DNA of 64,000 bases from the NCBI GenBank assembly GCA_039930785.1, contig JBDTTE010000001.1, positions 182 through 64,181 on the forward strand, in the 5' to 3' direction. The DNA is from Betaproteobacteria bacterium. GTDB lineage: Bacteria > Pseudomonadota > Gammaproteobacteria > Burkholderiales > JACQAP01. Numbering within the stretch: the first letter of the stretch is position 1; the number at the start of each line of letters is the position of its first letter. The notes below the pieces were generated by a model. That model was not told the origin of the DNA, did no database searches, and was given only the letters and a program-made list of their open reading frames with translations. Made by a program: the position numbers and the translations under genes. Shown here piece after piece: positions 1 through 33,244 of this stretch.

Positions 1-509
1 TCGATGCCCACTTCGCATGGACCGCCATCGAGTACGAGATCAACGGCTGCGCCGAGTTCCTCGCGCACGTGCGCGGCGGTCGTCGGTGACAGGCGCCCGA
101 AGCGGTTCGCCGAGGGCCCTGCGATGCCGCCATTGAAGGCTCTCAATAGTTGCTGCGCGACTGGATGCGATGGCACGCGTACCCCCACCGTGTCCTGCCC
201 GCCGGTGACGAGATCGCTGACGTGCGATGCGCGCTTGAAAACCATTGTCAGCGGCCCCGGCCAGAATTTTTCCGCGAGCACCCACGCCGATCGCGGCACT
301 TCCAGCGCCCAGTGCTTCAGCTCGCTGGTGTCCGCGATATGCACGATCACCGGATGGTCGGCCGGCCGACCCTTCGCCGCGAAAATTTTCCGGACGGCCG
401 CTGGATTGGAAGCATCGGCACCGAGGCCGTAAACCGTCTCGGTCGGAAACGCGACGAGGCCGCCTTTGCGCAGGATCTGGACGGCTTGCTCGATTTCCTG
501 GTCAGACAT
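1..509 (-). CDS. tsaC: L-threonylcarbamoyladenylate synthase, TsaC/YrdC/Sua5 family (N-terminal part only; C-terminus runs off the left edge)
   Basis: Manual reverse translation from the ATG (rc of 507-509) gives MSDQEIEQAVQILRKGGLVAFPTETVYGLGADASNPAAVRKIFAAKGRPADHPVIVHI...GPSANRFGRLSPT, a YrdC-domain pattern. It is absent from the ORF track because no stop lies inside the window. Confidence 0.85.
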   Translation of the reverse strand, partial: MSDQEIEQAVQILRKGGLVAFPTETVYGLGADASNPAAVRKIFAAKGRPADHPVIVHIADTSELKHWALEVPRSAWVLAEKFWPGPLTMVFKRASHVSDLVTGGQDTVGVRVPSHPVAQQLLRAFNGGIAGPSANRFGRLSPTTAAHVREELGAAVDLVLDGGPCEVGI

Positions 510-520
510 CGAAATCAACT

Positions 521-659
521 CTCACCGCGGAGGACGCAGAGGACGCGGAGGAAATCCAAACAAGAAAGTGGATGGTGATCGGCAAGCTTGATACTGAGGA
601 CACCCATTGAGAATCCCTGAGTTGTACTACTCTGCGTCCTCCGCGTCCTCCGCGGTGAG
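521..659. repeat. Imperfect inverted repeat (about 30-bp arms, 79-bp spacer) in the purC-tsaC intergenic region; MITE/REP-like element or structured RNA
   Basis: Left arm 521-550 is ctcaccgcggaggacgcagaggacgcggag. The reverse complement of 630-659 is ctcaccgcggaggacgcggaggacgcagag, matching at 28 of 30 positions. Each arm is built from GAGGACGC(R) 9-mers. Confidence 0.8.
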
Positions 660-668
660 TGCGTTTCT

Positions 669-1577
669 TTATTGCGTGAGGAGCTTGAGCGCTTCTTCGT
701 ACTTTTCGCCGGTCTTGCGCAGCACTTCGTCAGGCAGCGCCGGCGCCGGCGGTTTCTTGTTCCACTTGTGTGCTTCCAGCCAGTCGCGGACGAACTGCTT
801 GTCGAACGACGGCGGATTTGTGCCAACGCGATAACTGGCCTTCGGCCAGAAACGCGACGAGTCCGGTGTCAGCGCTTCGTCGATGAGATAAAGCTTGCCG
901 GCGGGATCCTGCCCGAACTCGAACTTGGTGTCGGCGATGATGATGCCACGCGTCGCCGCGTAAACGGCCGCTTCGGTATACAGCTGTACGGCCTTGTCGC
1001 GCACCTGTGCGGCGAGGGTTGGCTCGACCAGCTTTTCCATTTCTGCGAACGAGATGTTTTCATCGTGCGAGCCGAGTGCCGCCTTGGACGATGGTGTGAA
1101 CATAGGCTGCGGTAGCTGCTGTGCTTCCTGCAGGCCGGCGGGGAGCGCGATGCCGCAGATCATCTGCGTCTTCTGGTAATCCTTCCAGCCCGAACCGGCG
1201 ATGTAACCGCGCACGATGGCCTCGATCGGCAGCGGCTTGAGCTTTCGCACCACGAATGCACGACCTTCCACCTGGTCGCGCTCGTTGGCCGCGACCACGC
1301 TTTCCGGCGCCACGTCGAGCAGGTGATTGGGAATGACATGGCCGAGCTTGCGAAACCAGAAATTCGACATGGCCGTCAGCACGCGGCCCTTGCCAGGAAT
1401 CGGGGTCGGCAGAATGACGTCGAACGCGGACAGGCGATCGGTCTGGATGATCAGCATGCGGTCTGCGTCGATCTCGTAGAGGTCGCGCACCTTGCCTCGG
1501 TGGAGTAACCGCAGTGATTGCAAACGCGTCTCTTGCACGGCGGAATGGGTGTCCATGGAAGGGGTCTCCTGTCTCAC
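669..1577 (-). CDS. purC: Phosphoribosylaminoimidazole-succinocarboxamide (SAICAR) synthase, long form
   Basis: 302-aa ORF with [33 protein letters not shown] and later conserved blocks. Shares a 4-nt overlap with purK. The start could be the internal Met at 1556. Confidence 0.93.
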
Positions 1578-2734
1578 GCTGCGCCGGCTGCACGGCGCAC
1601 CTGCGCCTCCGACAGCAACAGGGTCTTGATCTCGATCGCGCTGGCGAGCGCCTGGCCGACGTCATCGCCGAGCACGGTGTAATGGCCCATCTTGCGACCG
1701 GGCCTTGCCTCGGTTTTACCGTACAGGTGCAGCTTGGCGCGGCGGTGACGCAGCACGTGCTCCCATCGCGGCTCGCCGGCAGCCCACAGGTCACCGAGCA
1801 GGTTGACCATCACCGCGGGACAGTGCATCGCGGTGTCGCCCAGCGGCAGGCTGCACAACACGCGCGCCTGTTGCTCGAACTGCGACGTCACGCAGGCGTC
1901 GATGGTGTAGTGGCCGCTGTTGTGCGGCCGCGGCGCGATTTCGTTCACCACCAGGCGGCCGCCGGCCAGCACGAAGAATTCAACGCAGAGCACGCCGCGA
2001 TAGTCGAGGCGTTCCGCGACCCGGATGGCCGCCAGGCGCGCCTGGTCAGCCAGCGCCGGCGCGATGCGCGCGGGCACAATGCTTATGTCGAGGATGCCGT
2101 GCGCGTGCTGGTTCTCGGCGACCGGGAAGGTGACGACTTCGTCGTCGAAGGCGCGTGCCACCACCACGGATACCTCGCGCTCGAGCGCGAGGAATTTCTC
2201 CAGCACGCAGGGCTTGCGGCCGAGGGTGGCAAAGGCGGCGCGCACGTCGTCAGGCGTAGCCACGCGCACCTGGCCCTTGCCGTCGTAACCCAGGCGCGCG
2301 ATCTTGAGAATGCCCGGCAGCAACGGGGCGATGCGGGCGTCGGCAAGGTCGGCTTCGCTGGCGACCACCGCGAAGGGTGCGACGTCGAGGCCATTATCGG
2401 CAAGGAAAGTCTTCTCGCGGACGCGATCCTGCGCGATCGAAACAGCCCGCGCCGACGGGCTCACGATGGCACGTTGCGCCAGGAAGTCCAGGCTATCGGC
2501 GGGCACGTTCTCGAACTCCGTGGTCGCCGCCGCGCAGTGCGAGGCCATCTTGCGCAGCGCATCGAAGTCCAGGTAGTCGGCGCGCAACTGCTCGTCGGCA
2601 ACGCTGCCGGCCGGGCTGTGGTCGCCTGGATCCAGCACCATCACCCGGTAGCCCATGCTCTGCGCCGCCATGGTGAACATGCGGCCGAGCTGGCCGCCGC
2701 CGAGCAGGCCGAGCAGGGCCCCGGGCGCGATCAT
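1574..2734 (-). CDS. purK: N5-carboxyaminoimidazole ribonucleotide synthase
   Basis: 386-aa ORF with an ATP-grasp N-terminus ([13 protein letters not shown]). Sits in purE-purK-purC operon order with 4-nt overlaps on both sides. Confidence 0.93.
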
Positions 2735-3261
2735 CGGCGCGGCGCTACGACGGGCAGCTTCATCGCCTTGACCTTCGCAACCTGCTTGCGGCGGAAGGCG
2801 GCGAGCTTCGCGGCGAGCCGCGGCTCATCGAGCGCGAGCATCGCCACGGCGAACAATCCCGCGTTGGCCGCGCCGGCTTCGCCCACGGCAAAGGTCGCAA
2901 CCGGTATGCCGCGCGGCATTTGCACGATCGACAGCAGCGAGTCGAGGCCTTGCAGCGCTCGCGAGGTGACCGGCACGCCCAGCACGGGAATCGTGGTCTT
3001 GGAGGCGATCATGCCGGGCAGGTGCGCGGAGCCACCGGCCCCGGCGATGATGCAGCGCAGCCCGCGCGCGGCGGCAGCCTCGGCGTAAGCGAACATGATG
3101 TCGGGTGTGCGGTGAGCGGACACTACCTTCGCCTCATGCGCAACGCCGAACGACTCGAGCATCTGCGCCGCGTGCTGCATGACACCCCAGTCGCTGTCGC
3201 TGCCCATGACGATGCCGACGCGCGGAGCGGTTTTACTGATGCGTTTTGCCTTGGTAGCCAC
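2731..3261 (-). CDS. purE: N5-carboxyaminoimidazole ribonucleotide mutase
   Basis: 176-aa ORF containing [39 protein letters not shown] and [11 protein letters not shown]. Confidence 0.95.
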
Positions 3262-3273
3262 TTTCCTGCTTCC

Positions 3274-3732
3274 TTATTCGTTGCCTGGTTGCGCCTGGGT
3301 ATCGACTGAGCGCCCCGCATCCTCGGCGTAGGGGAACCGCACGTGACCATAGCGGATGACGAGAACCGCGAGCGCAATCAGAAGGACCGAGCCCGACACC
3401 GCCAGCATGCGCCAGACATCGAGATCCTTGATGTCGAGGATCAGATAGCGCGCCAGCGCGACCATGGCTATATATAGTGGAAATCGCACCGGCAACTTGC
3501 CGGAGTTGTAATACAAGCCGACCATGGTCAGCACTTCCAGGTAAAGGAACATCAGCAGCAAGTCGGCCAGCGTGACTTTGCCGTTTGCCACCATCAGTGC
3601 CACCTCGTGGTAGCCGGCAACGACGGTGGCAAGGCCGATGATGATCAGGCCGATGTTCTCGATTACCTCGAGTCCGAAGACGGCGTAGCGGGCGGTCCTG
3701 GTTTTGGTTGGCATCTGTCTGAATTCCTGCAC
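3274..3732 (-). CDS. PsiE-family (phosphate-starvation-inducible E-like) inner membrane protein
   Basis: 152-aa ORF with four hydrophobic segments. The FLYLEVLTMVGLYY...FPLYIAMVALARYLILD pattern resembles PsiE. Confidence 0.65.
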   Translation of the reverse strand: MQEFRQMPTKTRTARYAVFGLEVIENIGLIIIGLATVVAGYHEVALMVANGKVTLADLLLMFLYLEVLTMVGLYYNSGKLPVRFPLYIAMVALARYLILDIKDLDVWRMLAVSGSVLLIALAVLVIRYGHVRFPYAEDAGRSVDTQAQPGNE

Positions 3733-27120: not shown

Positions 27121-27182
27121 GTGGATGAATTGTGGATGAATTCCGGTTCCGGACGATTCATGAAGTTATTAACAATTCATCC
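27121..27182. promoter_or_regulatory. DnaA-box-like repeat cluster in the dnaA-dnaN intergenic region
   Basis: Perfect tandem 11-mer GTGGATGAATT occurs twice (27121-27131 and 27132-27142). TGTGGATGA (27131-27139) matches the TGTGGATAA consensus at 8 of 9 positions. An inverted GGATGAATT copy lies at 27174-27182. Confidence 0.5.
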
Positions 27183-32464: not shown

Positions 32465-33244
32465 ATGATCGAAATTGCGCTCCTGTGTGGCTTTGCATTT
32501 GTCGCGGGATTGATCGACGCGGTTGCCGGCGGAGGCGGCCTGATCCAGGTGCCAGCGCTCTTTGCGGTGTATCCGTCCGCACCCCCGCCGTTGCTGCTCG
32601 GAACCAACAAGTTCTCTGCGTTGGCGGGCACCACCCTGGCCACCATTCGTTATGGCGCCTCCGTGCCGATTCCGTGGCGCGCCCTCCTTCCCGCTGCGGG
32701 AGTCGTCGCAGTGGGGGCACTGCTGGGCGCAAAGACGGTGACGCTCGTCGATCCCTCCGTCCTGCGGCCGTTGCTAGTCATCCTGCTTGCGACTATGGCG
32801 GCATATGTTCTTTTACGACCGAACTTCGGGGAGGGCGCCGCGCAGCCGAGAAAACTCGGCGGACTGTTTTTTGTGACGGTGGCGATTTTCGGATTTTACG
32901 ATGGGTTCTTCGGTCCGGGCGCGGGTAGCGTTCTGATGTTTGTACTGGTTCGATTCTTCGGCCATGACTTTCTCCGCGCGGCGATGACCACGAAGGTCCT
33001 CAACTGGACATCGAATTTCAGTGCGCTGGTCATTTTTGCTCTATCGGGAAATGTGCTCTATGCAGCGGCTATTCCCATGGCGCTATTCAATACTGCCGGC
33101 GGATTCATTGGCGCTCATCTGGCAGTTCGACGCGGGCGCAAATTCATTCGTGGCATATTCCTGCTTGTCGTCCTGCTACTTCTAGCGAAACTGGTCGGAG
33201 ACGAACTGAGGCCGCTCTGGGCAATGTTTCACGTGAAACCATAG
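32465..33244 (+). CDS. TauE/SafE-family (DUF81) anion exporter-like membrane protein
   Basis: 259-aa polytopic ORF with GLIDAVAGGGGLIQVPAL near the N-terminus, typical of the family. Confidence 0.8.
   Translation: MIEIALLCGFAFVAGLIDAVAGGGGLIQVPALFAVYPSAPPPLLLGTNKFSALAGTTLATIRYGASVPIPWRALLPAAGVVAVGALLGAKTVTLVDPSVLRPLLVILLATMAAYVLLRPNFGEGAAQPRKLGGLFFVTVAIFGFYDGFFGPGAGSVLMFVLVRFFGHDFLRAAMTTKVLNWTSNFSALVIFALSGNVLYAAAIPMALFNTAGGFIGAHLAVRRGRKFIRGIFLLVVLLLLAKLVGDELRPLWAMFHVKP
33225..33240. other. parS centromere-like site (15 of 16 match to TGTTTCACGTGAAACA)
   Basis: TGTTTCACGTGAAACc read at 33225-33240, a palindrome apart from the last base. It lies inside the last codons of the TauE-family gene, about 2.7 kb upstream of parAB. 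Confidence 0.8.

Follow-up and report, generated by a model that had tools for sequence, protein, structure and literature searches.

The question raised by this locus is whether the long inverted repeat lying between purC and sua5/tsaC is a device that serves these two genes or one copy of a dispersed repeat that has settled between them. The window, by which we mean the whole stretch of 64,000 nucleotides analysed here, carries both genes on its minus strand. The purC gene (SAICAR synthetase) occupies positions 669-1556, with its TAA stop codon at 671-669, and was identified by its Pfam SAICAR_synt match (2.8e-76) and by 295-aa homologues aligning with 100% coverage; the top PurC match in the protein collection shows 96% identity, and the named matches are uncultured 'Burkholderiales bacterium' MAGs. 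The 5' part of sua5/tsaC, a gene that extends beyond the window, occupies positions 1-509 (Pfam Sua5_yciO_yrdC, 1.8e-56), and its ATG start at 509-507 was placed by the N-terminal alignment of orthologues. Because the orthologues in relatives, which are 317-336 aa long, also have the Sua5_C domain, the window gene can be regarded as a long Sua5-type TsaC. No promoter-like site was predicted in or near the core of the repeat in a scan of window positions 1-3500, and sua5/tsaC, having no predicted promoter of its own, therefore probably depends on read-through from purC.

The spacer between the two genes measures 159 nt (510-668), and the palindrome, comprising foot, two arms and core, takes up 143 of these bases (519-661, including one additional foot pair at 519/661), its limits being set by inverted-repeat search, pair extension and RNA and DNA folds. 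Arm A, proximal to tsaC, lies at 521-550 and reads CTCACCGCG-GAGGACGCA-GAGGACGCG-GAG, and arm B, proximal to purC, lies at 630-659 and reads CTC-TGCGTCCTC-CGCGTCCTC-CGCGGTGAG; both are 30 nt long, stand 79 nt apart and are complementary at 28 of 30 positions (93%), forming the strongest inverted repeat of the whole window. Each arm is made up of CTCACCGC, two full GAGGACGCR nonamers and a partial third unit, the plus strand of arm A having just two T, both within the outer CTCA foot, and the most self-pairing available within one arm unit is a 4-bp CGCG/CGCG mini-stem, where R = G. Compared with the reverse complement of arm A, arm B shows two transitions, which leave one G.U and one A.C mismatch on either strand. 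The core, or loop (551-629, 79 nt), has a GC content of about 0.47-0.52, lower than the value of about 0.62 in the arms, is without significant structure when folded by itself (z = +1.0) and, as far as could be detected, is unlike the cores of other copies. The sense RNA of the spacer folds at -82.3 kcal/mol (z = -5.9, equalled by 0 of 200 shuffles), supporting the hairpin, and the element as DNA folds at -39.2 kcal/mol (z = -6.2). The SD-like GGUGAGAG (519-526, minus strand), 9 nt before the tsaC AUG, sits in the helix foot, where it is paired in the predicted fold with a CUCUCACC-like stretch at 654-661, and the tail UUGAUUUCG (510-518, minus strand) leads from the helix to the AUG. The architecture that the first-pass annotation had described from the letters, namely the 30-bp arms around a lower-GC core, the 9-mer tandem inside each arm, the near-filling of the spacer, the arm end 11 nt before the tsaC ATG, the tsaC-proximal arm as the place of the sole SD-like run and two spurious ORF ends (..LRVLCVLRGES and ..SASSASSAVS.., both present in the ORF list), was borne out throughout.

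Within the 64-kb window the element has one copy, and neither further copies nor variants were found there: the 30-mer arm, with up to 3 mismatches, occurs at two places only, the arms themselves (0.00 expected, 100 shuffles), and the double nonamer GAGGACGCRGAGGACGC is confined to both arms (0.04 expected by chance). Elsewhere in the window, at 27123-27182, there is a 21-nt inverted repeat (GGATGAATTGTGGATGAATTC / GAAGTTATTAACAATTCATCC) that is 81% complementary, has 18 nt between its arms and is AT-rich for the genome.

An exact scan for GAGGACGCRGAGGACGCRGAG, conducted on one genome per species, extended the analysis to other bacteria. The double-nonamer pattern matched more than 120 stretches in species-representative genomes, and about half of the exact matches listed were coding acidic (EDA-type) repeats, most of which came from Actinobacteria and from viral contigs. 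In 61 of the 120 matches listed, the foot signature [AC]C[CGA][GA]C[AG] stood directly before at least two units, the foot pattern alone having an estimated chance probability of about 0.006 per site, and a stringent search yielded 59 complete hairpins from the first 120 matches listed and the window. The arm motif reaches at least 12 bacterial phyla. Among the matches listed, hairpins were present in Betaproteobacteria (Burkholderiales, Sulfuricella, Gallionellaceae and Hydrogenophilales), in Gamma- and Alphaproteobacteria, and in Planctomycetota, Acidobacteriota, Gemmatimonadota, Verrucomicrobiota, Chloroflexota, Cyanobacteria, Bdellovibrionota, Synergistota, Abditibacteriota and Vulcanimicrobiota. 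The plasmid collection added the cultured Gemmatirosa kalamazoonensis, with 63 places on two megaplasmids (36 + 27), as well as Bacteroides finegoldii and cyanobacterial plasmids, and the motif was found in 0 of 5,426 E. coli genomes. Carriage of the arm by phages was considered and rejected, the 33 matches in viral contigs being mostly coding acidic repeats (about 8 were hairpin-type) and the phage collection giving two weak matches in fecal contigs. Multiple copies were seen, among the matches listed, in Burkholderiales SMAG_U9439 (L022, L036, L075), in Sulfuricella (L031, L065, two at L066, L077) and in Sulfuricellaceae (L002, L004, two at L038, L059, L073, L103); judged from related loci the copy density is very roughly one per 50-60 kb, and the window itself has 1 in 64 kb. 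A single copy without homologues, the finding that the first-pass annotation had set against its own proposal, is thus not what we see, as the arm is multi-copy in Burkholderiales and Sulfuricella MAGs and occurs in many phyla. Because the search pattern was exact, and such a search favours copies identical to the query, the cross-phylum identity of the GAGGACGCR variant is partly an ascertainment effect, and what the different phyla truly share is the hairpin design.

In this design the conserved unit is an arm of roughly 30-35 nt, consisting of a foot (T)TCACCGC, at least 2-3 tandem GAGGACGCR and a GAGGAA end, and two inverted arms enclose arbitrary DNA (consensus TTCACCGC-AGAGGACGC-GGAGGACGC-AGAGGAAA ... 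TTTCCTCT-GCGTCCTCC-GCGTCCTCT-GCGGTGAA). The foot was also seen as TTAACCGC or TGAAACGC, and the same genomes hold sister variants built of other 8-9-mers (GAGGCGCA, CACAGAGG, AAGGACGCC, GGCAGGAG, GACAGGATG). Multiple alignment of 12 long elements showed conservation in the arms alone, and comparison of the window core with loci L001-L124 (blastn-short) gave chance-level matches only. Cores are alike between orthologues or close paralogues and otherwise unrelated, and those of two copies lying 2.8 kb apart on one contig (L066a and L066b) are unrelated too. The arms occur as inverted pairs separated by less than 10 nt to about 280 nt, as apparent singletons (in cyanobacteria), as tail-to-tail pairs and in nested arrangements (L011, L107 and L125, from Bacteroides). 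At L055:1360-1434 and L078:2315-2407 there are apparent solo arms of 8 and 10 or more tandem nonamers, and because these solo arms are expanded the nonamer array would seem to grow alone, by slippage.

The history of this particular junction was examined in orthologous purC-sua5 junctions taken from encoding contigs, a metagenome scan and one genome match (L005). In related uncultured Burkholderiales the same spacer holds at least five hairpin alleles of like design, one deletion footprint, or 17-26 nt. Alleles of GAGGACGC type stand at the junction in the window, L005, L123 and L136; in the last three the cores are homologous to one another, the number of nonamers differs, and the foot GGUGAGAGG is followed, after 5-6 nt, by a GUG start. 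The closest relative (L121, PurC 96% identical over the compared C-terminal 120 aa) has in the same place an AAGGCGC allele, a hairpin with arms CACCGCAAAGGCGCGAAGGCGCAAAG and a matching 3' arm in which all the units of both arms are changed alike relative to the window, and in its core a weak similarity to the window core is left in the 3' part alone. A hairpin of CACGAAGG units occupies the junction in L122 and L133, a CGCGAAGG-type hairpin in L132 and a short hairpin of CACAGAGG type in L124. L127 represents a clean deletion of an L123-type element, CCGCAGAGG directly abutting TGTTCGTG, and L128-L131 have 17-26 nt between purC and sua5, with 15-25 nt in more remote lineages. A rough neighbour-joining tree of PurC and TsaC shows these filled, differently filled, deleted and short states interspersed with one another, and because of this interleaving we regard the junction as a turnover hot spot and the element as dispensable. 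In this Burkholderiales lineage, judged from the sequences compared, elements have settled at the purC-sua5/tsaC hot spot, returned to it and been lost from it many times. The element is not a locus-specific regulator, because relatives hold in its place other hairpin alleles, a deletion footprint or 17-26 nt; the junction carries it as an optional passenger.

Some further details of these junctions deserve mention. At L124:3425-3470 the 3' foot and its flank are tandemly duplicated (GGTGAAATCGGTTTGATGG GGTGAAATCGGTCTGATGG) after the short CACAGAGG hairpin and just before the sua5 start, and the string GGTGAA(A)TCGGTTT follows both the L124 hairpin and a hairpin in a Sulfuricellaceae MITE. The 'empty' junctions L129, L131, L130, L145, L162 and L164 contain foot- or arm-like scraps (AACCGGACGTC, ACCGGCCGTG, GAACAACGGTTG, ACGGTGACG, GACGCAGAGCGCGAACGCC), which may be remnants of earlier elements. 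The sua5 orthologues at most hairpin junctions, and those of L127 and L137, have an apparent GTG or TTG start with one extra N-terminal residue; that of L124 has an ATG start with the extra residue, and ATG is found at the short junctions L128-L131 and in the window.

The same junctions can be read in another way, in which a cis-acting RNA hairpin of the purC-tsaC operon is under selection as a stabiliser, an attenuator or an RNase III site that sets PurC:TsaC and conceals the SD of tsaC; any strong hairpin would then suffice, and the alleles could differ for that reason. Despite the sequence turnover, about 10 of the 15 closest sequences compared do have a hairpin here, the first paired base lies 7 nt past the purC stop and 9-11 nt separate the end of the helix from the tsaC AUG, the foot supplies an SD-like GGUGAGAG(G) in the window, L005, L123 and L136, and the tail after the stem, UUGAUUUC, is moderately U-rich (5 U in its first 8 nt). 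In addition, control of translation by REPs situated within 15 nt of a stop codon has been discussed for E. coli (PMC12306157). Against this stand the junctions of just 15-26 nt in L128-L131 and remoter relatives, the clean loss of the hairpin in L127, the presence of the same arms at many unrelated loci in many phyla, a core that is unstructured and unconserved, and the lack of a matching Rfam family for the element.

The pairing itself speaks to the level at which it is maintained. By rough ORF calls, 32 of the 59 hairpins lie between co-directional, 8 between convergent and 4 between divergent genes, and many are within about 30 nt of both neighbour genes, like the window copy. In co-directional contexts (again by rough ORF calls) transition mismatches on the sense strand comprise 35 G.U and 36 A.C, and because G.U equals A.C the pairing is apparently not kept by selection on one transcript. 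The 10 nt past the helix contain 3.8 T on the sense and 4.0 T on the antisense strand, by the same rough calls; a terminator-type orientation is not seen in the family. The equal mismatch counts suggest that pairing is maintained at the DNA level, and the mismatch and tail tests, combined with the way in which whole arms have changed in concert from one close relative to another, lead us to consider the element a DNA-level palindromic repeat. The lack of sense-strand bias likewise counts against a selected RNA hairpin, which we consider unlikely.

The first-pass annotation had also proposed that the helix could both terminate purC read-through and occlude tsaC translation. The element resembles intrinsic (Rho-independent) terminators in that its helix is GC-rich and, whichever strand is read at this locus, leads into a moderately U-rich tail, but differs from them in its 79-nt loop, its interrupted U tract, the missing sense-strand tail bias of the family and the presence downstream of an essential gene without a predicted promoter of its own. 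A terminator scan reported no site at the element, whose loop of 79 nt exceeds the 3-8 nt to which that scan is limited. With relatives that have no hairpin or unrelated versions of it, with 5 U in 8 nt of tail, and with neither a U-tail nor a G.U bias in the family, a dedicated terminator or occlusion device is not upheld, and we have removed the regulatory story for the purC-tsaC hairpin as unsupported.

Adopting the view that best accommodates these results, the element is probably one copy of a dispersed, non-autonomous REP/REPIN-like palindromic DNA repeat. The resemblance to REPs and REPINs is broad: these too are short extragenic repeats, occurring singly or in inverted doublets whose folding gives long hairpins, often co-transcribed and lacking target-site duplications, with site content that differs between strains and with spurious ORFs arising from them. 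REPs, known from E. coli and Pseudomonas, have been described as two super-families, GTAG and CGTC, whose neighbouring genes are mostly co-directional or convergent (Di Nocera et al. 2013, PMC3733652), and as species-specific (PMC6006769). The question is then whether the repeat is a canonical REP or REPIN that owes its mobility to a RAYT (TnpA-REP) tyrosine transposase whose gene lies at another place in the genome. Its multi-copy extragenic dispersal in related MAGs and Gemmatirosa, its inverted doublets forming a larger hairpin, its singletons and tail-to-tail pairs, the mostly co-directional or convergent placement known for REPs (PMC3733652) and the fact that no target-site duplication was seen would all agree with such an origin. 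The foot, however, lacks the GT[AG]G or CGTC tag, and the unit is not of the self-complementary kind: where a single REP folds back on itself as an imperfect palindrome of small size (stem of 7-20 bp and loop of 2-5 nt, or 8-9 bp and 4-5 nt), the present arm is a 30-35-nt tandem array of 8-9-mers, essentially T-free in the 5' arm and essentially A-free in the 3' arm. Unlike the species-specific REPs, moreover, the motif is common to many phyla, and no RAYT association was found at the 120 loci listed. The REP types of Di Nocera et al. (PMC3733652) and Quentin et al. (2018, PMC6006769), including class 3 with its CnGA foot, gave no match. These class 3 TnpA-Y1 'REPtron-like' repeats overlap with ours in their hosts (Planctomycetes, Acidobacteria, Proteobacteria), in reaching high copy number in some genomes and in an atypical, non-GTAG structure (PMC6006769), but the sequences given for them (CAGAGCCGCGACCGTAAGGGAGCG...) bear no relation to the GAGGACGC arms. 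Canonical REP status is, in our judgement, decidedly improbable.

No transposase family, Y1 or other, recurs within about 4 kb of the 120 loci listed when their ORFs are clustered all against all, the recurrent families there being the ubiquitous response regulators and kinases, ABC ATPases and SDRs. Neither a mobilising gene nor a caught insertion event was found in the loci compared, and it is the distribution of the repeat that points to its mobility. The target-site duplications that the first-pass annotation had suggested looking for were seen neither at the borders of about 60 copies, which are approximate borders, nor between filled and short orthologous sites. Rfam returned no match for window positions 1-3000 (E <= 1), and for ten related loci it returned only sub-threshold eukaryotic miRNA-precursor models, which are generic long hairpins. 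Sub-strings of the arm had no relevant match in open-access papers; the subscription literature might still describe such arms.

MITEs are known from operon spacers, as in the case of Chunjie in Geobacter and Nezha in cyanobacteria, and elements of the Correia and ERIC type are comparable. With these the present element shares a size of about 100-250 bp, inverted ends, tolerance within a transcription unit and the formation of RNA hairpins, and it could in principle be a classical MITE, that is, a deletion derivative of a DDE insertion sequence with the arms as its terminal inverted repeats. Terminal inverted arms are present, the interior varies from under 10 nt to about 280 nt, and nested arrangements occur (L011, L107, Bacteroides L125). 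In one case the hairpin travels within a MITE: the Sulfuricellaceae MAG SO_2016_LW3_62 contains an element of about 250 bp with a 20-bp TIR, CAGGGTAAATTTGTTCTCRG, which differs from the arms, and with a GAGGACGC hairpin near one end, in at least 4 full and 2 partial copies (L002, L004, L038, L073, L103). A classical MITE is nevertheless expected to show target-site duplications, a conserved interior and a related autonomous IS, and our copies lack flanking direct repeats, have interiors that are unrelated even on one contig (L066a and L066b) and have no autonomous element with such ends near the 120 loci listed; the variable number of nonamers in the arm would also be odd for a transposase-binding TIR. 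We hold this origin to be very improbable indeed. The suggestion that the element has the architecture of a REP- or MITE-type mobile palindrome accordingly survives in part, since the repeat is dispersed and polymorphic at its site, but it fails the features tested for formal membership of either class.

Returning to the reading of a REP/REPIN-like repeat, its behaviour may be pictured as follows. Arms would gain and lose nonamers through slippage, and they would be homogenised or replaced with the sequence of other copies, which would explain the concerted whole-arm differences between close relatives; an entire palindrome could be lost via deletion between short foot repeats. The window copy is probably co-transcribed with purC and sua5/tsaC as a very stable RNA stem-loop, and any effects on purC and tsaC expression are likely by-products rather than a selected switch. 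As a barrier, the stem might shield the 3' end of purC from 3'-to-5' decay. Being 7 nt from the purC stop, and hence inside the 15-nt range of the REPs mentioned above, the helix might interfere with terminating ribosomes, and it might partially attenuate read-through. The tsaC gene would be left with a weak and partly sequestered SD, GGUGAGAG, in place of the tight 17-26-nt junction of relatives. Mild attenuation, protection of the purC mRNA 3' end and damped tsaC initiation are thus plausible in the light of the predicted fold, and some occlusion of the tsaC SD by the helix foot is possible; relatives with 17-26-nt junctions do without these hairpin effects.

A wider reading can be offered tentatively, being in our estimate rather less probable than its negation. 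The arm would represent an uncatalogued pan-bacterial super-family of REP-like repeats, composed of RAGG(N)CRC(N) tandem 8-9-mers and a foot TNMAMCRC, whose units may include GAGGACGCR, AAGGCGCR, CACAGAGG and CACGAAGG and, more loosely, GGCAGGAG and GACAGGATG, and whose range may extend from Bacteroidota and Cyanobacteria to Planctomycetota, Acidobacteriota, Gemmatimonadota and Betaproteobacteria. Because the 5' arm is essentially T-free and the 3' arm essentially A-free, such arms are without stop codons on either strand. Their symmetry would be maintained by DNA-level slippage and by conversion between arms and between copies, and the same intergenic hot spots would be occupied repeatedly. 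If true, this range would imply either that a trans-acting enzyme which mobilises or homogenises the repeats has gone unrecognised, or that some universal cellular component recognises them. Provided that the family is truly uncatalogued, it would also give rise widely to spurious small ORFs (encoding peptides of FTAEDAEDAEE and SASSASSAV type), to false ncRNA candidates and to breaks in the assembly of environmental genomes. The object itself is of an ordinary kind, and the interest lies in the apparently uncatalogued pan-phylum arm design and in the hot-spot turnover. What merits follow-up is that the motif is conserved across phyla with no transposase known for it, and the orthologous series, with its five alleles, single deletion footprint and four short junctions from one family-level clade, provides a system for the birth, homogenisation and loss of palindromes.

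Other loci show how varied the arrangements of such hairpins can be. In the low-GC genome of Bacteroides finegoldii, between nudC and an ABC-F gene (L125:2440-2910), the palindromes are nested, a CACCACAGAGGACACGGAGGACGCAGAGG hairpin adjoining a second long palindrome (CCAGGGTGAGGGGTGGTGAGGGTAG...) and an outer inverted repeat, GCAACCGCACCAAAATTTGATTCAT, surrounding both. On Gemmatirosa plasmid 2 (L240:26648-26732 and 32614-32733) hairpins of the same design have other units, GACAGGATG/GACAGGACG and at least six tandem GGCAGGAG octamers per arm. In Desulfobacterales HSG2 (L112:5100-5500) there are at least three tandem copies of a unit of roughly 271 bp, each with a hairpin of GCGTCCTC-type arms followed by GCGTTAAAAAAA.
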